Shown: positions 34,118 to 45,451, counted from the stretch's first letter. The stretch: DNA of 51,197 nt from Cryomorphaceae bacterium (GCA_949511925.1 CATEYX010000022.1:1-51197), one strand, 5' to 3'. The notes: generated from the letters alone by a model not told the origin. Numbers and translations are program-made.

Positions 34118-35572
34118 CTAACTACGAAAATCAAAATAAATATGTTTTATTTCTTTAAAAAAGATTAAAGCATAAAAGCAATATAATAATATCGGGAATA
34201 GAAAGTAGTGAAACATTTTAAAATCTAATTCATGAGTCATTCCTAAATACAAAAATGGTGCACTAACTAAAACAAGCAAGTAAAGAGGCATACTAAAAGG
34301 ATGTATATTCAGCTTAATATTTATTATTATGATTCTATAGATTTCAGTAAGTAAACTAAAAATAACAAATAACAATACAACAGCTAATAATTTATACTCT
34401 GTTATAAATAGAATTGCTAATACATTAATAAAGAGAACCTTAAAGAATTGTAGTTTTAGTTCGTATTTCTCTAAATTTGCCATTGTTAAAATATTTCCAG
34501 CCCCACCAACTAATAACCTAAATATCCTTCCAAACATAATAATATATAAATAAGGAGCATATTTAACTAAACCACCAGTATCATCATATAAGTAGAGTAT
34601 ATCTTTAGAAAAAATTATAATACTAATAATAAAAGGTGCGGCTAGTAAATTTATAATAAATGTAGTCTTTTTAAATAGAATCTCCAATTCACTAATCCTA
34701 TTCTCACTAAATAACTTGCTTATTGCAGGAGCAAATATTGTATTTAAATTATTTATTAAAAATAAGGTTACTCCAGATATCGATAATAATATACTATATA
34801 CACCAATATAAATCGTAGGTAACATAAAACTAAGTATTAAAGATAATGATTGCCCAGCAAAAAAAGTAACTAATGAAATTGTATACATTTTCTTTGCATA
34901 GCTTGTTATCTCAGAATCTATCTTAAAATCTATATCCTTCTCTACAAAAACAATTGAAAATACATTCTTATTAAAGAAATAAAACAATAATGATAATGAA
35001 ACAAATGATGTAAACATTTCAATACCAATAAAATACAGAACATTATCAGTGTATATGAAAATAAAATAGGTGAGCACTGCTCGTAAGGGAACAATAATAA
35101 AAGTACCATACAACATTATTTCTTTAATCTTAAACGCAGATCGATATAAAGAAATAATAATTCCCATCAAAATTGAGATAGGAACGTTAATTGATGTTAC
35201 TAATAAAAATAAAGAGAAGTTATTAATTTCTTTATATAAATAAACATCTAATACTGGAGCTAAAAAATAGATGATTACAAGAAACACAAAAGATATTACC
35301 AAAGAGTAATTAATAATCTTTCTTATAAGTTGTTTTGCAGACTTAAGATCAGCATCAATATACTGTGGAATATACTTGACAATAACCCATGGGATACCAA
35401 AAGAGATAATAGTACTCATAGCACCAGAGAATGTGAGAGCAGAAACATATTTTCCCCATTGTTCAATTCCAATAATATCAATAAGATATATCTTAATAAA
35501 AAAGCCTATAACAAAACCAAAAATAGAGCCTGCAATCCCCCAATTTGCTTGTTTAATTATTAAATTTATCAT
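34118..35572 (-). CDS. wzx: Wzx-type oligosaccharide flippase (MOP superfamily)
   Basis: 484 aa with about 12-14 TM helices. It is the last gene of the polysaccharide operon. Confidence 0.7.
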   Translation of the reverse strand: MINLIIKQANWGIAGSIFGFVIGFFIKIYLIDIIGIEQWGKYVSALTFSGAMSTIISFGIPWVIVKYIPQYIDADLKSAKQLIRKIINYSLVISFVFLVIIYFLAPVLDVYLYKEINNFSLFLLVTSINVPISILMGIIISLYRSAFKIKEIMLYGTFIIVPLRAVLTYFIFIYTDNVLYFIGIEMFTSFVSLSLLFYFFNKNVFSIVFVEKDIDFKIDSEITSYAKKMYTISLVTFFAGQSLSLILSFMLPTIYIGVYSILLSISGVTLFLINNLNTIFAPAISKLFSENRISELEILFKKTTFIINLLAAPFIISIIIFSKDILYLYDDTGGLVKYAPYLYIIMFGRIFRLLVGGAGNILTMANLEKYELKLQFFKVLFINVLAILFITEYKLLAVVLLFVIFSLLTEIYRIIIINIKLNIHPFSMPLYLLVLVSAPFLYLGMTHELDFKMFHYFLFPILLYCFYALIFFKEIKHIYFDFRS

Positions 35573-35599: not shown

Positions 35600-36742
35600 T
35601 CAGTTAATATCAGTAAAAAACGAATAATTCATAAATTCTTTAATTGTATTCTTAATATCATACTTCTCATCAAAAGGAAAGCTTCTTTTCTTCTTATATT
35701 CACCAAGTATTTTCTCTTTTAATGAACTTGGTGACTTTTCATCAGCTAACAAATTATTAATTTCATAATCAGGAATAAGTTCTGATATTCCTTGACATTT
35801 AATTGCAATAAAGGGAGTATTGGTAGACCAGGACTCTAAGTAAACGCAACCTAAAGCTTCATAATAAGAAGGCAATACAAATAAATCAATCTCATTATAA
35901 AAGCTATTAATCAAATTATGTGCTCTCTCTTTTTCAAAAATTACGAATTCTGATAAATTATGATCTTTCACAAATTTCTTACACAAGTCTAATTTTTTTC
36001 CTGTACCAATCAATTTTAGCTGAATATCATTTATCCCATCTAAAATTAATAATTCAATTGCTTTTATTAGAGTTATTTGATCTTTTATTTCCCAAAAGTT
36101 TGCAACACTTCCAATAGTAAAAGATCTATTTACATCACCTTTAATAGGATAAAATTTTGATGTATCCACTCCATTATACAAAACAAGTTCATCTTTTGGA
36201 GAATAAGATGGGTATTCTCTCAGTTGACTTAAAACTAGTTCTGACACTCCAATATTCAAATCTGAATGATTTAGTTGTCTGATTGTATTTCTAATTAAAT
36301 AATTCTTTTGTAATTTCATAATAAAATTACTCCTTCCATTTAATAATTGAAGTACATCAAGTCCATGATGTTGCACTATTTTTTTACAATCTAAAATATT
36401 TTGCAAGTATGATGCCGGATAAGAAACATGTGCATGAGAAATTATAATATCATTTATCTTTTTATTTTTTAAGAAGGATTTAAACCTATTTGTATTTAAT
36501 TCGTTAAAAATTCCTGGAGAAATAAACCACGGTAAATCCATTACTCTAAATATCATAATTTCAAAACCTTCAAATTTATAATCCTTTTCAACTGAAAAAG
36601 CAGAAACTAATTTAATGACTTTAATATTGAAATCACTTTGATTTCTAATTTCATTTATTTGATCAAAAATATAACTACCAACAAAAGAATTTTTAGAAGG
36701 AAAAAATGGAGTAATTACTAAGTATGTTTTTTTATTGTCCAT
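35600..36742 (-). CDS. Family 4 (GT-B) glycosyltransferase
   Basis: 380 aa. E-x7-E region LPSYYEALGCVYLESWS. Confidence 0.75.
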   Translation of the reverse strand: MDNKKTYLVITPFFPSKNSFVGSYIFDQINEIRNQSDFNIKVIKLVSAFSVEKDYKFEGFEIMIFRVMDLPWFISPGIFNELNTNRFKSFLKNKKINDIIISHAHVSYPASYLQNILDCKKIVQHHGLDVLQLLNGRSNFIMKLQKNYLIRNTIRQLNHSDLNIGVSELVLSQLREYPSYSPKDELVLYNGVDTSKFYPIKGDVNRSFTIGSVANFWEIKDQITLIKAIELLILDGINDIQLKLIGTGKKLDLCKKFVKDHNLSEFVIFEKERAHNLINSFYNEIDLFVLPSYYEALGCVYLESWSTNTPFIAIKCQGISELIPDYEINNLLADEKSPSSLKEKILGEYKKKRSFPFDEKYDIKNTIKEFMNYSFFTDIN

Positions 36743-37769
36743 TATGCAAATTTACAATTACTTTTTCCCAATCAATAATAATATTTTTCCAGTCAAATCT
36801 TTTAGCTAATTTAACAGCATTTTCAGATGACTTCTGAAGAGATACTGAATCATTAAGTAGCTCATTAATAATACTCTTCACCTCATTAAAATCATTTGCA
36901 ATAAAGCCATTAATTCTATGCTTCATCCATTTAGAAGCACCATAAGAATTATAAACTACTGAAGGAATTCCAGCTGAAGCAGCTTCCAAAATTACCTTAG
37001 GAAATCCCTCAGATTTTGAAGGAAGAAACATTATATCTGATTGCTGGAATATTGCATCTATTTTATCCTGTGATAACTCTCCATGAAAAACTACATTAGA
37101 ACTAGCATTTTTTTCTAAATTATCTCTCTCAGGACCATTACCAATTATATTAAAATTAATTTGAGGATAAAATTTAGCTAATAGTAAAAATTCATCTATC
37201 CTTTTCCTTTTTATTAATCCTCCTACAAAAACAATTGATCTTAAATTTTGAGCAATTTTTGAGTTAAATTGATGAACATTCACACCTAACAATAAAGGAA
37301 TATTATTGATGGATATTACTGATTGAGTTTCTTGGATTAGAAATCTAGTAATACCAAAAACTTGCTTAAAATAACTAAAATGATTTTTCATGTTATTTTC
37401 TGACCCAAATAAAGCAATTAGATTAGGTTTACTTAAATCAGTTACATTTCCTTCAATAGTAGTAAAAACTGGCTTTTTGAGTAGTTTTGCTAACTTTAAC
37501 ACCCAAAGTGGAGTATCAACATGTTTAGGAAAATACGCTACATCACTATTGAGCATTCCCCATAAAAAGCCTAAATGCTTTGAAAAACTAAAAGGCTTTA
37601 AGCATTTGAAGGTATTTGCCTCAAAACTCTCACTTCTGCCAAAATGTGTAGTTAAGGCTAATACTTCAAATTTATCTTTATCCAAATACTCTGCAACTGC
37701 TCTACAATTTAAATTCTGAGCATTGGTATAATTAATATATCCACCAAGAAATACTTTTATTTTACTCAT
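36732..37769 (-). CDS. Family 4 (GT-B) glycosyltransferase
   Basis: 345 aa. E-x7-E region LPSKSEGFPKVILEAASAGIP. It overlaps both neighbouring genes. Confidence 0.75.
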   Translation of the reverse strand: MSKIKVFLGGYINYTNAQNLNCRAVAEYLDKDKFEVLALTTHFGRSESFEANTFKCLKPFSFSKHLGFLWGMLNSDVAYFPKHVDTPLWVLKLAKLLKKPVFTTIEGNVTDLSKPNLIALFGSENNMKNHFSYFKQVFGITRFLIQETQSVISINNIPLLLGVNVHQFNSKIAQNLRSIVFVGGLIKRKRIDEFLLLAKFYPQINFNIIGNGPERDNLEKNASSNVVFHGELSQDKIDAIFQQSDIMFLPSKSEGFPKVILEAASAGIPSVVYNSYGASKWMKHRINGFIANDFNEVKSIINELLNDSVSLQKSSENAVKLAKRFDWKNIIIDWEKVIVNLHNGQ

Positions 37770-38896
37770 TTTAATAAATTTAAAAATTTTTGTTCATTAA
37801 AAGGAAAGTAAAAAGCAATTGCCCAATCTTTAATGATTTTTGATTTTTCTTGATAAAATTCAATTGAATCCAACTCGTCAATTAAAATATTAAGAGGGTA
37901 ATCAAATTCATTTTGAAAATAATTAAACTCATTTTCAGAAGCAAGTAAAATTGTAGGAATCCCTAATAAAGCAGCCTCAAAAGTGGATGTCGAATAAGTA
38001 GTAGCATGCAAACTACATAATCTTAAGCATTCATTAATGTCAACAGTGGCAATCATAACATTGGATAATTTTAATAATTCTGACAAATCAACTTCATTAT
38101 TAAACCTAGGATGGTGCTTTAGGTAAAAATTAACATCCACATGAATTGATAAAATAAACTCCCTTAATTCTTTTAATAAAATTGCATTCTCTTTTACAGT
38201 ATGATCATGTGTGAATTGTAAAGTAATAAGGATATTCTTATTAAATTCTTTATGGATAGTACTTTTATAAGATATATTACTACCAATTACTAAAGTGTGA
38301 TTTTTAAAATAATCTAATTTTTCATTTATTTCTAATATCTTTTGGTAAGATTCTCCACATAACAATAAGTTAGCATCGTTGACAACTAAATTACTTTCTG
38401 CTATACCATTTACTAAATAATTCTTTTTATTGTTGTGAATAATACCATGCTGAAGATCATACAACATCACAGAAGGGTTAATTCCCCTAAAAACACTAAG
38501 CATGCTTTGCGATAGAGTTATAAAATTTTTGAAATGAAACTGTCTAAAAAATACTTTAGCAATAGAACTGCCAATTTTCTGATCTTTTAATTGAGTATTC
38601 ATCTCAGAACTAAATAGTTTACGCAAAAGAATAACTACTAGATAAATAAAATCAAATGGAGTAGTCTTTGAATTTCTAATACTTTTAATTGTAAAATCAG
38701 GCTCTTCAAACACAACATATGAGATACTATTTCTATCACAACTTAGCAAGAGATGTTTAAAAAGCTGATTTTCTTTATTTTCTCCTCTGTTAAAATGCTG
38801 AGGATAATAAAAAACAACATCATATTTTCTTTTTATTAGTATACCTGAAAGAAAAAAAAACATTGACTTTATAATATATAGAAAATTTCTAAACAT
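37766..38896 (-). CDS. Uncharacterised GT-B-like transferase (candidate nonulosonic-acid or glycerophosphate-type transferase)
   Basis: 376 aa with an N-terminal hydrophobic segment. LKHHPRF (HHPR at 38105-38116) followed by HATTYSTSTFEAALLGIPTILL recalls the HP / S-S-T motifs of bacterial sialyltransferases and TagF-like enzymes. I recognise no confident family. Confidence 0.4.
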   Translation of the reverse strand: MFRNFLYIIKSMFFFLSGILIKRKYDVVFYYPQHFNRGENKENQLFKHLLLSCDRNSISYVVFEEPDFTIKSIRNSKTTPFDFIYLVVILLRKLFSSEMNTQLKDQKIGSSIAKVFFRQFHFKNFITLSQSMLSVFRGINPSVMLYDLQHGIIHNNKKNYLVNGIAESNLVVNDANLLLCGESYQKILEINEKLDYFKNHTLVIGSNISYKSTIHKEFNKNILITLQFTHDHTVKENAILLKELREFILSIHVDVNFYLKHHPRFNNEVDLSELLKLSNVMIATVDINECLRLCSLHATTYSTSTFEAALLGIPTILLASENEFNYFQNEFDYPLNILIDELDSIEFYQEKSKIIKDWAIAFYFPFNEQKFLNLLK

Positions 38897-40294
38897 TTAT
38901 TTTAATAAATTTTGACTTTGCTTAGTATGAGAATAATTATCGCCAATATGAATAATAATATCATGAAAATAATTATCTAATTTTTCTTTATAAGATTCTC
39001 TAATTTGCTTTTTTAAAGTTTCAACTTCTTCAGATATAAGCTGCCCATTTCCTTTTTTTCTAAATCTAGGTTCGAGAATTTCTATTTTGATAACTCTAAT
39101 ATCTTTTGGGTAGACAGACATTCCCTTAATTTTTAAATCAACTTTCCAATCCTTAATATCATCAATTTTATATAAAGCCTTAATGTAAGTATTGAATTCA
39201 GGGATATCTTTATAATCTGCAGATGAATATACAGTATATTGTTCTTTAATAAATTTCTCAATTTCATCAAAATATTGAGATACAGGCGGCCATAATACAA
39301 TTTCAAAATACAATTGATTACTAATCAAAATTTGTTGTTTTCTCTGTTGGATTAAATCCAATTCCTCAGTTGAAAAATTATTACTTTTAAACCAACTTAT
39401 ACCATATGGAGAGTGATCAAGTTTATTATTAATTTTTATAGCAATGAAAGGCTCATTAAAATACAATGCACATGCTAAGCGGTGTGCTCCATCTACTATG
39501 TGCAAATCTTTATTTACTAGTATTGGATAATTACTATCAACTCCATTATTATTAAAACTTGTAATTAACTCTTTAAAAACCTTCAAAGGATTAGTGTGAG
39601 CTGACCCTCCTCTATTCTTTTGCATCTTCTCATACAGATTAATCCCTTCATTTTCATAATTCAAAAAGGAATCAATTGCCATATAGCGAACAATTATGTC
39701 ATATCGATTAAATCTATGGTCAACAACTTGTTTTGCTAGCAGGCTAGAAGTTGGTATCATTTGAAATGCATCACTATGCAAACTAGTATCATATCTAAAA
39801 TAATTTTTTAGATAATTGAGATACAAGCTAAATCTATTTTGGAGTTTTCTGAAAATATTTTTTAAAAATGATGGCTTTGGTAATTCATGCTCGATTAACT
39901 TCCAGTTCCAATTTTTATACATTTTTGCATACTCATTCAATTCAATAATATCTGATTGATCCTTAATTCTATTGTGCCATTTTTTTTTATGATAAATAAG
40001 TTCAGGAATTACAAATTTGAAACCATTGTATAAAATATATAAATCTGAGTTTTCAATCAAATTATCATCTGAAAACAAGGAAGACCATGGGTTATTTACC
40101 CTTTCAATAAATGAATGTTGAGAAAGTGAGTTTGAAGCATATTTAGAATGAATTACAATATCAATATCATTATGTTTTCGAATACCAATTAAAGATAAAG
40201 TTGTACTTCCTACTAAACAAATATCTTCTTTTGAAATTTCATTTAATTTCAGGTATTTTTCAAGAGATTTAAAATCCTTATCATCAAAATCCAT
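38897..40294 (-). CDS. Uncharacterised three-module protein: minimal nucleotidyltransferase fold + ParB/sulfiredoxin-like module + unknown C-terminal domain
   Basis: 465 aa. Pol-beta NTase signature hG[GS]-x12-DhD in LVGSTTLSLIGIRKHNDIDIVI (40154-40210). ParB/Srx-type motif IVDGAHRLACALY (DGAHR at 39479-39493). I do not recognise the C-terminal ~140 aa. Confidence 0.45.
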   Translation of the reverse strand: MDFDDKDFKSLEKYLKLNEISKEDICLVGSTTLSLIGIRKHNDIDIVIHSKYASNSLSQHSFIERVNNPWSSLFSDDNLIENSDLYILYNGFKFVIPELIYHKKKWHNRIKDQSDIIELNEYAKMYKNWNWKLIEHELPKPSFLKNIFRKLQNRFSLYLNYLKNYFRYDTSLHSDAFQMIPTSSLLAKQVVDHRFNRYDIIVRYMAIDSFLNYENEGINLYEKMQKNRGGSAHTNPLKVFKELITSFNNNGVDSNYPILVNKDLHIVDGAHRLACALYFNEPFIAIKINNKLDHSPYGISWFKSNNFSTEELDLIQQRKQQILISNQLYFEIVLWPPVSQYFDEIEKFIKEQYTVYSSADYKDIPEFNTYIKALYKIDDIKDWKVDLKIKGMSVYPKDIRVIKIEILEPRFRKKGNGQLISEEVETLKKQIRESYKEKLDNYFHDIIIHIGDNYSHTKQSQNLLK

Positions 40295-41433
40295 TAGGAA
40301 AGAAACAATTCCACAAACTCTCTTACCACTCCATCACCACCATTTCTTTTTAATTGCATAATGTTTGGAATAGCTTTAATTTTATCAACTGCATTATTAG
40401 GGCAAGCGGCAATTCCTACATGAGATAAAAGACCAAAACAATTTACATCATCTCCTATATAAGCAACTTCAGCAAGAGTGATATTTTCTTTTACGCATAA
40501 ATCTTTAACTATCTGTAATTTATCCTTTGCACCATGAAAATCAAAATCCAAACCTAATTTCTTAGCTCTTCTTCTGTTTAGCTCTCTATCTTCTGTAGTT
40601 AATATCCCTACTTTTACTCCTGTTTTCTGCAAGAGCTGAAAACCCATTCCGTCATAAGTACAGAACTTTTTAAACTCATCTCCTTGTTCAGTATAGTACA
40701 TTCCTGCATCTGTAAGCACTCCATCTACATCAGATAAAAATAATTTAATATTAGAAAAATCTAACTCTTCATTTTTTAAAACAAAACGTTTCATCAATGA
40801 TTCAGCAACTATCCAATCTTCTGGCTCATCAATTTCAATATAAGTATATTCTGGCATCTCATAAATTCCGATATCTGCTGAAATTCTATTCTTCGTTGAT
40901 TTTATATCAGCAACAGAGCTGATATAAAAAGCGCCATTTTCTATTAATGTCCCTTTGTGATCTTGTCTTCTTGGTCGGTTATAAATATCATAATTTAATG
41001 CTTTTCCGTTTCTCCAAGAAAACCTTTTAGATTCACAACAAGTTAGAATAGTATCATGTTGTTTAAACAACTCTAAGCCCTCATTAAAATGAATGCTTTG
41101 CGTAAAAGGTGAAGTTGCTTGCACCAACATAAAAGTATCTTCATTGGAAATATTTGAACTATCTATATATTCCAGCATAACTGATTCAGTAGAAGATACG
41201 TCTTGAGCATTTTCCTTACTTCTATTATACACTTTTAACTTTGAAAAATTAAATGAGTTTACGATTGACTTAATTTCATTAGAATCTGTGGCAACAATAA
41301 TTTCATCTACATCTGAATTTTGTAGTTCTTGTAAATTCCAAAATATTAATGGTTTTCCACAAAAAACTTTAATGTTCTTTTGTAAAATAGACTTGCTTCC
41401 TCCTCTGGCTGGTATAAAAGCAATTATGCTCAT
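40294..41433 (-). CDS. neuA: Bifunctional CMP-nonulosonate synthetase (NeuA-type cytidylyltransferase) fused to KdsC-type HAD phosphatase
   Basis: 379 aa. N-terminal domain has IPARGGSKSILQKN and NRPRRQD. C-terminal domain has HAD motif I LSDVDGVLTD, KDK, and motif IV YIGDDVNCFGLL. Confidence 0.8.
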   Translation of the reverse strand: MSIIAFIPARGGSKSILQKNIKVFCGKPLIFWNLQELQNSDVDEIIVATDSNEIKSIVNSFNFSKLKVYNRSKENAQDVSSTESVMLEYIDSSNISNEDTFMLVQATSPFTQSIHFNEGLELFKQHDTILTCCESKRFSWRNGKALNYDIYNRPRRQDHKGTLIENGAFYISSVADIKSTKNRISADIGIYEMPEYTYIEIDEPEDWIVAESLMKRFVLKNEELDFSNIKLFLSDVDGVLTDAGMYYTEQGDEFKKFCTYDGMGFQLLQKTGVKVGILTTEDRELNRRRAKKLGLDFDFHGAKDKLQIVKDLCVKENITLAEVAYIGDDVNCFGLLSHVGIAACPNNAVDKIKAIPNIMQLKRNGGDGVVREFVELFLS

Positions 41434-42308
41434 TATTGTTTTCTGTATTTTAGTTTATCTCTTTGTACTTGTTCAATTGCTAAGACATCCGACTGCTTAC
41501 ATGTAAGAGCTTTATGTGTAGCCTTTAAATCTCTAGCTAATTTTCTTAATCCAGCAGGCTCTAAAGAAGCAGAATGATCTGTTCCTTTCCAAGTTCTATC
41601 TAAAGTAAAATGACGTTCCACCCAATTGGCTCCTAAAGCATAAGCAGCAATGTCTACTGCTATTCCCAAATGATGCCCTGAGAATCCAATTGTTTTTACT
41701 CTATCATTAAATTTTTCCTTTATTCTTAAAATTTCTAGCATACAAACATCCTCAAAAGGAACAGGATAAGCTGAAGTACAAGAATATAACACTAATCTTT
41801 TTGCCTGATTATTTTTTTCAAAAAATGAAACAATCTCTTCTTCTTCATCCTTTGTTGTCATCCCAAAAGAAATATGCACTTCACCTTGATAGTCATCTCT
41901 TAAAACTTTAAGCATTTCATAATGATTATTACAAGCAGAAGGTACTTTTATTAATTTAGGATTAAGAGAAGTAATCTGTTTTGCAGAAGTAGTATCCCAA
42001 ACAGAAGTAGAATAAATAATTCCTAAGCTTTCAGCATATTCTTTAAGTTCTTTATGTTGACTAACATCAAACTCTAAAAATTCTCTATGCGCACCATAAC
42101 TATCTCCATAGGAGTTTATAGGGTTAGGGTGAGGAGCATTATACTGATACTCAGTCAATAATTCTACATTATTTCTTTTTTGAAATTTAGCAACTTCAAC
42201 TCCACTTTCTGCAGCTACTTTCAATAAGTGTTTTGCTATCTCCATTTCTCCTTTATGATTGCAACCAATTTCTGCAATCACTTTTGGAGTTTCATAATAA
42301 CTTTTCAT
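41433..42308 (-). CDS. neuB: NeuB-family nonulosonate (sialic-acid/KDN-type) synthase lacking the C-terminal SAF domain
   Basis: 291 aa. NeuB TIM-barrel motifs VIAEIGCNHKGEMEIAKHLL, VAKFQKR, IKVPSACNNH and VERHFTLDR. It ends before where a SAF/antifreeze-like domain would sit. Confidence 0.75.
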   Translation of the reverse strand: MKSYYETPKVIAEIGCNHKGEMEIAKHLLKVAAESGVEVAKFQKRNNVELLTEYQYNAPHPNPINSYGDSYGAHREFLEFDVSQHKELKEYAESLGIIYSTSVWDTTSAKQITSLNPKLIKVPSACNNHYEMLKVLRDDYQGEVHISFGMTTKDEEEEIVSFFEKNNQAKRLVLYSCTSAYPVPFEDVCMLEILRIKEKFNDRVKTIGFSGHHLGIAVDIAAYALGANWVERHFTLDRTWKGTDHSASLEPAGLRKLARDLKATHKALTCKQSDVLAIEQVQRDKLKYRKQ

Positions 42309-44678
42309 TTAATCTTTTTTTAGCTTTTCATTATCATCAAAATACTCTGAGCCTTGAGTATATCCATATTTATTTCCATAACCGTAGCCATAACCGTAGC
42401 CATAACCGTAGCCATAGCCATAACCATAAGCACCACTACCCTCTTTTACATCATTAAAAATAAGGTGTATGTCTCCTAATCTTTCTTTACCATACATGTC
42501 ATCAGCATATGACAGTAGACCTTTTCTAGAATAATTCTGTCTTGCTACATATAGGTTAATATCTGAATAATCCATTAAGGTTAATGCGTCAGCAACCAAT
42601 CCTAAAGGAGGGGTGTCTAAAACAATAATATCATAGCTTTCTTTTAAGGCCTTTATCATCTTTCCAAACTTATCACTCAATAGAGCATCAGATGGATTAT
42701 TTGGTACAGGTCCTGAAACCAAAATATCTAAATTTTCAATGTCAGATTGTACAATTACATCACTTAATGACTTATCACCAAGAATATGGTTAGAAATCCC
42801 AATTTCATTTGTAAGTCCAAAATCAACATACATCCTTGGCCTTCTTAAATCACACCCTATTACTATAGTTTTTTTACCAGATTTTGCAAATACTATAGCT
42901 AAGTTTTGAGCGATATAGGTTTTACCTTCTCCACTTATTGATGAAGTAACTAAATATACTTTCTTATTATTTTCTGGATTGAAGAAATTTAAATTAGACC
43001 GCAAAGCTCTAAACCCTTCAAAGACAGCAGATTTAGGATTTTGTTGAGATAGTAAGATATTACCACTATGATTACTACCAATTATACTTAAAATAGGAAT
43101 AGACGTAGCCTTTTCCAAATCAGCTCTATTAAGTATCTTTTCGTTTATCAACTCCTTAATTAAAAGTATAATCATAGGCAACATTAAACCAATAAGTAAT
43201 GCAATTATATAATTTTTTGTTTTATCAGGGTCAACAGGTTTTTTAGAGAAATACATAGCAGGCTCTAGCGCTTTACTATCAGAAATATTAGAAGAAGATG
43301 TTATTTTTGCTTCCGCTCTCTTTTGTAATAAGAAAATATAGATGTTTTCAGAAATAGACTGTAAACGCTCAATACTTAACAGTTCTCTTTCAACTTTTGG
43401 AATATCTCCTAATGAAGTTTCCATTTTATTAATCCTATTTTTAAAATCCTTAATAAGCAAATTATTAGTTGACTTACTTAAATTAATTGCTTTTTTAAGA
43501 TTAAGTACTAATTGCTTAACTTGACGATTATATTGTGATACTGAAGGATTATTAATTTGCCCACCATCAACTAAAACATTCTTTTTAACTTGTAATTCAA
43601 CTAATTGATTTATAATCGAGTTCAAGCCAATATCATTAACTCCAAATGAAGTAGAAACACTAATACTTTCTAAATTATCTCCATCATTAATATAATTTTC
43701 AAGATAAGTATAGTAATTACTAAGACTTTTACTTTTTGCTAACTCTGTATCTACATTAACAATATTAGCATAAATACTTTGCGCCCTTAAACTTAAATCA
43801 GTAATCTTATTATTATTCTTATATTCTTGAATATTCATTTCAATAAGTGACAATGAATCACTCATTTCCTTCAACTGACTATTTATAAAAGAAACTGTGT
43901 TATTAGATGCTATATTTTTTTCTCTTAGCTCACTATTGATATAATTTTCAGTTAATTTGTTTAAGAATTTAACTCCTTTTATTTGATCCTCTTCCAGTAT
44001 TGATATATCTATCACTGTTGAATTAACATCCTTTTGTGAAATTAAAATCTTCTTTTGATATTCAAGAGTAAGTCTTTTTAAATCCCTAAATTCAATAACC
44101 GTATTGGGCATATCAATACTATTTTCAGAATATCTACTATCTAAATCAACTATAATCATTGTCGAATAAAAATCAATCTCTTCTCCAAAATTATGATTTT
44201 CTTGTTTATTATTATCATCATAAATAATTGTATATTGATTATCATTAATATATTCAATAGTAATATTCTTTCCAATTACTTTAGTTATATCATTACATCT
44301 TATTTTAAATGGAGCAATAAAGGATTCAGACTCTTTTATAGTTCCAACAATATAGTAATTAATCTCAAAACCTAAATCAGATAATGTCGAATAAACTAAA
44401 GGATAAGATTTTAGCATTAATACCTTGTTCTCTATGCTTACATTACTACTTCCCATTGCTTTTTCATACAATAAATCGGATGCAGAACCCATTGAATTAT
44501 TTTCCTTTATGAGAATAGAGGTTTCTACCAAATATAGTTCCTTAGTATATCTATTATATAGATAAGCTAAAGCAAAAGTCAAAAACAAACTTAGAACAAA
44601 AAAGAACCAATTATTAATTATCTTGAAAACAAATTGCCTAAAATCTATTATCTCATCAAGTTGATTATTAATACTCAT
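42309..44678 (-). CDS. wzc: Wzc-type polysaccharide co-polymerase / tyrosine autokinase with (YG)9 tail
   Basis: 789 aa. Wzz-like N-terminus with TM helices, a coiled-coil region, Walker A SSISGEGKTYIAQNLA, Walker B IIVLDTPP, and C-terminal AYGYGYGYGYGYGYGYGYGNKYGY. Confidence 0.85.
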   Translation of the reverse strand: MSINNQLDEIIDFRQFVFKIINNWFFFVLSLFLTFALAYLYNRYTKELYLVETSILIKENNSMGSASDLLYEKAMGSSNVSIENKVLMLKSYPLVYSTLSDLGFEINYYIVGTIKESESFIAPFKIRCNDITKVIGKNITIEYINDNQYTIIYDDNNKQENHNFGEEIDFYSTMIIVDLDSRYSENSIDMPNTVIEFRDLKRLTLEYQKKILISQKDVNSTVIDISILEEDQIKGVKFLNKLTENYINSELREKNIASNNTVSFINSQLKEMSDSLSLIEMNIQEYKNNNKITDLSLRAQSIYANIVNVDTELAKSKSLSNYYTYLENYINDGDNLESISVSTSFGVNDIGLNSIINQLVELQVKKNVLVDGGQINNPSVSQYNRQVKQLVLNLKKAINLSKSTNNLLIKDFKNRINKMETSLGDIPKVERELLSIERLQSISENIYIFLLQKRAEAKITSSSNISDSKALEPAMYFSKKPVDPDKTKNYIIALLIGLMLPMIILLIKELINEKILNRADLEKATSIPILSIIGSNHSGNILLSQQNPKSAVFEGFRALRSNLNFFNPENNKKVYLVTSSISGEGKTYIAQNLAIVFAKSGKKTIVIGCDLRRPRMYVDFGLTNEIGISNHILGDKSLSDVIVQSDIENLDILVSGPVPNNPSDALLSDKFGKMIKALKESYDIIVLDTPPLGLVADALTLMDYSDINLYVARQNYSRKGLLSYADDMYGKERLGDIHLIFNDVKEGSGAYGYGYGYGYGYGYGYGYGNKYGYTQGSEYFDDNEKLKKD
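42375..42428 (-). repeat. Coding microsatellite encoding (Tyr-Gly)9
   Basis: Nine consecutive hexamers (tccata accgta gccata ...), including three perfect 12-bp tandem units accgtagccata at 42381-42416. Confidence 0.95.
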
Positions 44679-44680
44679 AC

Positions 44681-45451
44681 TTAGTTATTGTTGATTAATA
44701 GATAAAGTGTTATTGCTGATATTGACATAGAAATCAAGTTTGGTAAACTAGAAAATGAATAAAATCTTTTATTTAATTGAGGCACATAAATCACATCATT
44801 TGGTTGCAACATAAAATTAGGATTGTTTAATGTTTTTATATCAGTTAAATCAACATAAAAAATCCTATTTGCATCATTATCATTTCTAAGAATTTTTATT
44901 TTCTTCAGGTTACCAAACTCTGTCATATAATTTGCTAGACTTAAAGCATATAAAACATTTGCCTCAGGATTAACTACCATGTAATTTCCAGGATTATTTA
45001 CTGCACCCAAGACACTTATCTCAAAATTAATTATATTTAATTTCACTATTGGTTTTTCAAAATAGGAAATTGCAATTTGCCTAATAATATTCTCTAACTC
45101 TCTTAATGTAAATCCTTCAGATTTTATTTTTCCTAAAGAAGGTAAGTCCAAAAAACCACCCTCTTTAATTAGATATCCATACAAGTATGGATTCTGCACC
45201 ATTAAATTTGAATTAGAAGTTTGTTCCTTATTAAAAAAATCGTGTTGTTGATTGGTAACTGTGCTAATTTGTACTGATATTAAATCACCAACTTGTAAGA
45301 GGTACTTATTAGTATTTAACTTTGCTTTTGATACATCCTTAGATGTTCTGAAATATTCAAAATCCTTATTTGTAACACAGGATGAAAAGAAAAAGAGTAG
45401 TACTAAAAGTAATACTACGAATTTTGATTCTACAAAAAAAAATTTATTCAT
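44681..45451 (-). CDS. wza: Wza-type polysaccharide export outer-membrane protein
   Basis: 256 aa. Lipoprotein-like signal LLVLLFFFSSC, Poly_export motif YLLQVGDLISVQI, and an SLBB-like segment. First gene of the operon. Confidence 0.75.
   Translation of the reverse strand: MNKFFFVESKFVVLLLVLLFFFSSCVTNKDFEYFRTSKDVSKAKLNTNKYLLQVGDLISVQISTVTNQQHDFFNKEQTSNSNLMVQNPYLYGYLIKEGGFLDLPSLGKIKSEGFTLRELENIIRQIAISYFEKPIVKLNIINFEISVLGAVNNPGNYMVVNPEANVLYALSLANYMTEFGNLKKIKILRNDNDANRIFYVDLTDIKTLNNPNFMLQPNDVIYVPQLNKRFYSFSSLPNLISMSISAITLYLLINNN

Follow-up and report, generated by a model that had tools for sequence, protein, structure and literature searches.

Two overlapping genes, which are predicted to direct the synthesis and activation of the nonulosonate Kdn (2-keto-3-deoxynononic acid), are present in a stretch of 51,197 nucleotides from a Cryomorphaceae bacterium (GCA_949511925.1 CATEYX010000022.1:1-51197). 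This whole stretch, to which we will refer as the window, corresponds to contig C22 in a 1.70 Mb genome assembly (G000) that consists of 206 contigs and is estimated to be 90.7% complete. The source names attached to proteins nearly identical to its own point to uncultured marine Flavobacteriales. Based upon profile searches of the window proteins, the two genes are part of a tightly packed operon of the capsule/exopolysaccharide type on the minus strand, in which wza is the first gene and a flippase gene is the last. The upstream gene of the pair encodes a synthase of the NeuB family, and its ATG directly abuts the stop codon of wzc. Its own stop codon overlaps with the start codon of the second gene (TAATG), which encodes a cytidylyltransferase fused to a phosphatase domain of the HAD superfamily. 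The features of this gene pair, including lengths in amino acids (aa), are as follows.

41433-42308, minus strand: SAF-less NeuB-family synthase (PF03102), 291 aa, predicted Kdn-9-phosphate (Kdn-9-P) synthase acting upon phosphoenolpyruvate (PEP) and mannose-6-phosphate (Man-6-P)
40294-41433, minus strand: cytidylyltransferase::KdsC-type HAD phosphatase fusion, 379 aa, recognized by profile matches to both domains
40783-41433, minus strand: cytidylyltransferase domain at the N-terminus of the fusion (aa 1-217), predicted cytidine monophosphate (CMP)-Kdn synthetase; best match in the Protein Data Bank (PDB) 9t4z, PpNeuA
40297-40758, minus strand: KdsC-type HAD domain at the C-terminus of the fusion (aa 226-379), predicted Kdn-9-P phosphatase; matches to NF058599, TIGR01670 and 3e81

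The SAF-less synthase

The synthase matches the Pfam family NeuB (PF03102) over residues 29-271 with a score of 225.6 bits (cut-off 22.1), and no match to the SAF domain (PF08666) was found in the Pfam search of this protein; an earlier reading of the sequence, the first-pass annotation, had likewise described it as a protein of 291 aa that stops before this domain. The motifs AEIGCNH (residue 12), KFQ (41), FSGHH (209) and VERH (230) in this protein align with the motifs of Neisseria meningitidis NeuB (EIGxNH, KxQ, SxH and ERH), which we take, from the structure 1xuz, to be the metal- and PEP-binding residues. The overall identity to the N. meningitidis enzyme is low (86 bits). Against the NeuB_NnaB model (TIGR03569) the synthase scores 195 bits, covering positions 3-273 of 329, and against the PseI model (TIGR03586) it scores 142.5 bits, and these values lie below the respective cut-offs of 399.65 and 340.25. 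With a score under the TIGR03569 cut-off and no SAF domain, the protein falls outside the classical NeuB/N-acetylneuraminate synthase group.

The closest characterized relative of the synthase is the Kdn-9-P synthetase from the alga Prymnesium parvum; over 284 positions the two share about 187 residues (~65% identity), and the alignment contains a single 2-residue gap. The sequence of the latter enzyme was obtained by hand translation of the codon-optimized gene in the supplement of PMC6200933 and the alignment was also made and counted by hand; the translated protein is 312 aa long and leaves no room for a SAF domain. As a cross-check of the hand count, the synthase was found by BLASTP to be 65% identical to P0065, an environmental protein from a marine-eukaryote catalogue, which we judge by eye to be orthologous to the P. 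parvum synthetase. The latter is reported to convert Man-6-P fully and to show 0% conversion with N-acetylmannosamine-6-phosphate (ManNAc-6-P), arabinose-5-phosphate, mannose, N-acetylmannosamine (ManNAc), mannosamine and arabinose. The protein P0065 (444 aa, ERR1719284) is itself unusual in that, after one complete SAF-less synthase, a second copy begins (residues 339-444), forming a tandem repeat in one reading frame.

To the first-pass annotation, the locus resembled the Kdn route characterized in Bacteroides thetaiotaomicron, a comparison that holds for the phosphatase (see below) but not for the synthase, which is of the P. parvum type. As the equivalent of the B. thetaiotaomicron synthase BT1714, we used the synthase that lies beside a gene 100% identical to BT1713 on a contig from an uncultured Bacteroides (L020). 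This protein is 346 aa long, possesses a SAF domain and is 29% identical to the window synthase, which is therefore not an orthologue of BT1714. The same distinction was observed in a FastTree phylogeny of 127 sequences, comprising the window synthase, the synthases of the fetched loci and representatives from a search of the full library. In this tree, the window synthase formed a clade with the synthases adjacent to the fusion in four other genomes and with eukaryotic sequences (support 0.97), and the SAF-bearing clade of the BT1714 type was placed on the opposite side of the deepest split; the phylogenetic placement that had been recommended for the synthase separates it from the B. thetaiotaomicron type. 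The lack of a SAF domain, the high identity and the shared clade all place the synthase with the P. parvum enzyme. P0065 was nested within this clade, which contains Bacteroidota, with weak internal support.

In a large-scale phylogeny of this family, the SAF-less NeuB proteins were described as forming a group that is found in environmental bacteria only, and had no assigned function (PMC8208679). A search of a phage collection with the window synthase gave three distant matches only, with 27-34% identity.

The two domains of the fusion

The fusion is located on the minus strand between 40294 and 41433, where the first-pass annotation had placed a NeuA-type domain joined to a KdsC-class HAD domain with DVDGV and GDDVN motifs, and our profile searches agree with this description. 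Residues 4-214 correspond to a CTP_transf_3/PseF-like domain (PF02348, 72.2 bits). Its best solved relative is PpNeuA of P. parvum (9t4z; E 2e-35), with about 38% identity by our own count, and in the same search mouse CMAS (1qwj) was matched with an E value of 2e-22. The structure of PpNeuA provides a means to examine the sugar specificity of this domain. Its Arg196 forms a hydrogen bond with O5 of Kdn and would clash with the N-acetyl group of N-acetylneuraminic acid (Neu5Ac), and in the R196L mutant the Km for Kdn is raised more than 50-fold and the preference turns to Neu5Ac (9t4z structure paper). After allowing for an offset of 18 between the numbering in the paper and that in the PDB entry, which was checked on Gln110, Leu164 and Lys165, the residues Arg183 (codon 40885-40887), Thr82 and Gln105 of the fusion align with Arg196, Thr89 and Gln110 of PpNeuA, respectively. 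Mouse CMAS has a Leu in the gatekeeper position of Arg196. Both Arg183 and Thr82 are retained in all six of the fused homologues that were aligned, down to about 42% identity. The N-terminal domain thus combines the CTP_transf_3 fold with the gatekeeper Arg of a Kdn-specific synthetase.

The best NCBIfam match of this domain is to PseF (TIGR03584), and one possibility to be considered is that the pathway yields a 5,7-diamino nonulosonate, i.e., a sugar like pseudaminic or legionaminic acid. Besides the PseF match (107.3 bits), the PseI match of the synthase (142 bits) and the resemblance of a candidate transferase encoded in the operon to a family of pseudaminic/legionaminic acid transferases are in its favor. 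However, the PseF and PseI scores are far below the cut-offs for these models (205.7 and 340.25), the operon is devoid of the aminotransferase, dehydratase and N-acetyltransferase genes of those pathways, and the synthase belongs to the clade of an enzyme specific for Man-6-P. The pseudaminic and legionaminic acid pathways also use unphosphorylated 6-deoxy sugars, so that a fused phosphatase would be left without a role, and we regard a product of this type as hardly credible.

The second half of the fusion (residues 229-378) is a KdsC-type HAD domain, in which the DVDGV motif is located at residue 235 and the GDDVN motif at residue 327. Its top NCBIfam model is that for Kdn-9-P phosphatase (NF058599, 172.7 bits); it scores 103.6 bits with the KdsC equivalog and 118.7 bits with the KdsC subfamily model TIGR01670, where the cut-off is 106.95. 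The best PDB match is BT1713 of B. thetaiotaomicron (3e81; E 2.9e-37, about 50% identity), and a BLASTP comparison with the protein from L020 that is identical to BT1713 gave 49%. Both Asp residues of motif I (Asp235 and Asp237), the Lys of motif III and the GDD of motif IV (Asp328) are retained in this domain. Further, the residues Glu56, Arg64 and Lys67 of BT1713 correspond to Glu281, Arg289 and Lys292 of the fusion. We take these three to be the sugar-binding set of BT1713, and positions 56 and 67 agree with the mutant PDB entries 4hgq and 4hgr.

The order of the two domains is that of vertebrate CMAS, as had been pointed out from the sequence alone: the fusion is matched by the cytidylyltransferase domain of the mouse protein (1qwj) over residues 4-217 and by its C-terminal domain (3ewi) over residues 227-376. 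This similarity is one of architecture and does not by itself establish a common descent of the two fusions.

Proposed route to CMP-Kdn and competing explanations

Based upon these results, we consider it likely that this gene pair constitutes a compact module for producing CMP-Kdn from Man-6-P within an operon for a capsule or exopolysaccharide of the Wza/Wzc/Wzx type. In the first step of the route that we propose, the SAF-less synthase would condense PEP and Man-6-P to give Kdn-9-P. The HAD domain of the fusion would then remove the 9-phosphate to yield Kdn, which the N-terminal domain of the same protein would activate with cytidine triphosphate to CMP-Kdn; the joining of these two domains may permit channelling between them. 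In the last step, a dedicated transferase, for which the 376-aa protein related to BFO_1060 is a candidate, would add Kdn to the polysaccharide that is exported by Wzx, Wza and Wzc. We infer the substrates of these enzymes mainly from homology: the nearest characterized synthase accepts Man-6-P only, the HAD domain is nearest to BT1713, and the synthetase domain carries the gatekeeper Arg183. These similarities are in keeping with the phosphorylated intermediate and the Kdn-like product that had been suggested in the first-pass annotation. Neither the chemistry nor any of the three types of enzyme is new. What differs from the only characterized bacterial system is that the synthase is SAF-less and of the algal type, and that an apparently intact phosphatase is fused to the activating enzyme.

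The supply of the starting sugar in this genome also bears upon the identity of the product. No gene of the Epimerase_2 family (NeuC/WecB/GNE) was detected in the operon or elsewhere in the assembly, in which 90.7% of the genome is represented, and in a control the same search matched 11 of 14 reference genomes. Similarly, no NanE or AGE-type epimerase was found in the assembled genome. The absence of neuC and of any ManNAc-forming enzyme, which had been reported for the operon, is thus extended to the whole assembly, and ManNAc and ManNAc-6-P are in consequence left without a recognizable source. The window synthase is the only NeuB homologue in this genome.

This result argues against an animal-like route, in which ManNAc-6-P and PEP would be converted into Neu5Ac-9-phosphate, Neu5Ac and finally CMP-Neu5Ac. 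The window proteins match NANS, NANP and CMAS in their three-step logic and in the order of their domains, the synthase scores higher with the NeuB_NnaB model than with PseI, and BT1713 is reported to have been crystallized with Neu5Ac. However, in addition to the lack of an epimerase, the closest characterized synthase shows no conversion of ManNAc-6-P, Arg183 occupies the position where the Arg of PpNeuA sterically excludes the N-acetyl moiety, and the NeuB_NnaB score (195 bits) is far under the cut-off of 399.65. A Neu5Ac product therefore appears highly improbable to us.

A number of observations weigh against the Kdn route that we favor, and several of these concern Man-6-P itself. No type I phosphomannose isomerase (PMI) was found in the genome, and the only PMI-like gene encodes a PF01050 cupin of about 115 aa (C56:6334-6692; L036 1483-1841, minus strand), which is split into pieces of 32 and 90 aa by an apparent frameshift that could either stem from misassembly or reflect a genuine disruption of the gene. 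Of the five other genomes carrying the module, a type I PMI was matched in two and not in the remaining three. The recognizable candidate for a Man-6-P source in this genome is thus weak. The specificity of the synthase for Man-6-P is likewise a prediction, as an identity of about 65% does not guarantee the use of the same sugar. With regard to the HAD domain, its score with the Kdn-9-P phosphatase model (172.7 bits) is just under the equivalog cut-off of 180, and an alignment of standalone KdsC-like proteins from a further twelve genomes of Bacteroidota showed the Glu/Arg/Lys set to be present in most of these as well. This set is therefore a poor discriminator of Kdn-9-P and Kdo-8-phosphate (Kdo, 3-deoxy-D-manno-octulosonate) phosphatases, and the use of Glu56 and Lys67 as decisive markers of the former was rejected. 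Additionally, motif IV reads GDDVNC rather than GDDxxD, the last Asp being replaced by Cys332 (40438-40440), and the C-terminal domain of vertebrate CMAS, which has the same fold, has no detected phosphatase activity (PMC8636478).

The last two of these points raise the question of whether the HAD domain is catalytically silent and serves as a platform for oligomerization, as in vertebrate CMAS, in which case another phosphatase would remove the 9-phosphate. The change from Asp to Cys in motif IV is, however, common to the whole subclade, in fused (L025-L027) as well as standalone (L030, L031) proteins, and is thus a trait of the lineage and not a sign of decay. The Asp residues of motif I, Asp328 of motif IV and the sugar-binding residues are all retained, and the synthase family includes further proteins in which a HAD domain is joined directly to the synthase. 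Moreover, close standalone versions of the domain (66-73% identity) occur in the sister genomes G408 and G423, for which a role limited to oligomerization makes little sense. We therefore think it quite unlikely that this domain is silent.

A different question is whether the HAD domain serves, wholly or in part, as the Kdo-8-phosphate phosphatase (KdsC) of the cell for lipopolysaccharide synthesis. It is the sole KdsC-family match in this genome, where KdsA-like (C63) and KdsB-like (C175) genes are present, and the fusion is likewise the sole match in G088 and G336; the score above the TIGR01670 cut-off is also compatible with such a role. On the other hand, the genome is about 9% incomplete, and several genomes of genus g83, some of them complete, have no KdsC-like match at all, from which it follows that the lack of a KdsC is frequent and carries little information. 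The domain is also joined to a Kdn-type module in a capsule operon and inherited together with it, and the Kdn-9-P phosphatase model outscores the KdsC equivalog. A KdsC function is thus in our opinion unlikely, and it would add to the function in Kdn synthesis rather than replace it, so that it is compatible with the proposed route.

Fusions within the SAF-less synthase family provide additional links between the enzymes of the Kdn route. In a metagenomic protein of 427 aa (P0244), a PF01050 PMI cupin (residues 6-110) is fused to the N-terminus of a SAF-less NeuB with 54% identity to the window synthase. This cupin is 35% identical to the C56 cupin described above, which partly offsets the weakness of the Man-6-P source. 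In the other carriers of the module, no PMI gene was found beside it. Other members of the family combine the synthase with a HAD domain, either as NeuB::HAD (P0243) or as HAD::NeuB (P0292 and, by eye, P0245), or with a cytidylyltransferase (CTP_transf_3::NeuB, P0268). Judged by their domain content, these fusions together link all four of the proposed steps, the link to PMI being that of one metagenomic protein.

A fusion of the synthase and cytidylyltransferase in the reverse order was seen in an uncultured Flavobacteriaceae (L011:2227-3882, plus strand), where a NeuB::CTP_transf_3 protein of 551 aa is encoded directly upstream of a BT1714-like SAF-bearing synthase. A BT1713-like phosphatase is located nearby, and this Kdn-type locus thus contains two NeuB paralogues.

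Distribution, known systems and operon setting

The full-length fusion was detected in 6 of 400 sampled Bacteroidota genomes. In four of these, which are distant members of the phylum (G191, G088, G336 and G304), the pair is adjacent, with a SAF-less synthase that is 62-72% identical to the window synthase immediately upstream of the fusion, and the surrounding genes differ. Of these genomes, G191 is 4.5 Mb in size and 100% complete and is probably that of an isolate. Within the family to which the window belongs, the full-length fusion is present in 13 of 24 other genomes and is absent from some that are nearly complete. In two of its members, the fusion is replaced by a standalone phosphatase of 157-168 aa (G408, C1:149340-149837; G423, C28:16744-17205) with 66-73% identity to the fused domain, which indicates that the fusion was made or broken within this family. 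Homologues of the fusion are also common in marine metagenomes, as at least 120 protein clusters with at least 83% identity, nearly all of 379 aa, were listed from the JGI, ENA and Tara metagenomes.

To our knowledge, there is biochemical evidence of Kdn biosynthesis for a very small number of organisms, viz. B. thetaiotaomicron, P. parvum and some vertebrates. The P. parvum system resembles that in the window in its SAF-less synthase of similar length (312 vs. 291 aa), in the Arg196 gatekeeper and Thr89 of PpNeuA, and in starting from a phosphorylated sugar. However, P. parvum is a eukaryote in which no homologue of a Kdn-9-P phosphatase was found, whereas the window genes are part of a bacterial capsule operon, and PpNeuA ends in a transmembrane anchor whereas the fusion ends in a HAD domain. 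In B. thetaiotaomicron, which belongs to the same phylum, the three-step chemistry is the same as that proposed here, with BT1714 as the synthase and BT1713 as the phosphatase, and Glu56, Arg64 and Lys67 of BT1713 are kept in the HAD domain. In contrast to the window genes, the BT1714 equivalent has a SAF domain and belongs to a distant clade, and BT1713 is a standalone protein of 164 aa. Both halves of mouse CMAS are detectably homologous to the fusion (E values 3.7e-22 and 5.2e-14), but its C-terminal domain functions in oligomerization, and the enzyme, which has Leu as its gatekeeper, is nuclear and prefers Neu5Ac. The classical NeuC/NeuB/NeuA systems of N. meningitidis and Escherichia coli K1 also consist of a TIM-barrel synthase of the NeuB family followed by a CTP_transf_3 enzyme in a capsule locus. 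They differ in that they depend upon NeuC and unphosphorylated ManNAc, have a SAF domain that supplies Arg314, and need no phosphatase.

In a literature search, no characterized bacterial fusion of a CMP-synthetase with a KdsC-type domain was found. The C-terminal domain of CMAS is said to occur in "some types of bacteria", with nothing more specific (PMC8636478). The fusion described here is a specific candidate, from a bacterium, for an enzyme that combines Kdn-9-P phosphatase and CMP-Kdn synthetase functions, which could be of use in the chemo-enzymatic synthesis of CMP-Kdn, and a candidate for a catalytically intact comparator to the inactive C-terminal domain of vertebrate CMAS. The locus also suggests that a SAF-less pathway of the P. 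parvum type is widespread in marine Bacteroidota and common in marine metagenomes, and that in the case of the window it feeds a capsule, with the phosphatase step covalently linked to the activation step. In the current annotations of these genes, viz. "N-acetylneuraminate synthase", "acylneuraminate cytidylyltransferase" and "YrbI family Kdo-8-P phosphatase", the sugar is probably misnamed.

A broader and rather doubtful proposal is that this gene pair represents the bacterial counterpart of the Kdn pathway of haptophytes and alveolates, and possibly its donor or recipient in evolution, that its fused HAD domain is the phosphatase never found in P. parvum, and that Kdn capsules are common in the abundant marine Flavobacteriales with small genomes. 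The observation that points in this direction is the nesting of the eukaryotic sequences within the Bacteroidota-containing clade, in which the branch supports are weak (0.00-0.44). If true, Kdn would be a surface trait that these bacteria share with the algae among which they live, which could be relevant to the proposed Kdn-dependent recognition in viruses of algae.

The remaining genes of the operon, from its head to its end, are as follows.

44681-45451, minus strand: wza, Wza-type exporter, 256 aa (Poly_export and SLBB matches), head of the operon
42309-44678, minus strand: wzc, Wzc tyrosine autokinase, 789 aa (GNVR and AAA_31 matches)
38897-40294, minus strand: soluble orphan protein of 465 aa, no family assigned
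37766-38896, minus strand: soluble protein of 376 aa, candidate transferase for a CMP-activated nonulosonate (weak BFO_1060-family match)
35600-37769, minus strand: two GT4 glycosyltransferases of 345 and 380 aa (Glycos_transf_1), syntenic in G415 and G420
34118-35572, minus strand: Wzx-like polysaccharide flippase, 484 aa (Polysacc_synt and MatE matches; many transmembrane-like windows)

A scan of the operon for promoters and terminators gave counts no different from the shuffled level. Synteny extends over the whole operon in two related genomes (G415 and G420), including the gene for the 376-aa protein, which occupies the same position with 45% identity. The match of this protein to the BFO_1060-family glycosyltransferase model is weak (E 1.9e-10; 40 bits, cut-off 200); this family contains a transferase for pseudaminic/legionaminic acid derivatives that has been implicated genetically in Tannerella forsythia (PMC5420450). 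The 465-aa orphan encoded between the fusion and this protein has no significant match in Pfam or NCBIfam and no transmembrane segments. A copy of it with 67% identity is present in G420, and in G415, from the same genus, an unrelated gene of 257 aa (L053 7367-8140) is found in its place, indicating that this slot of the operon is variable.

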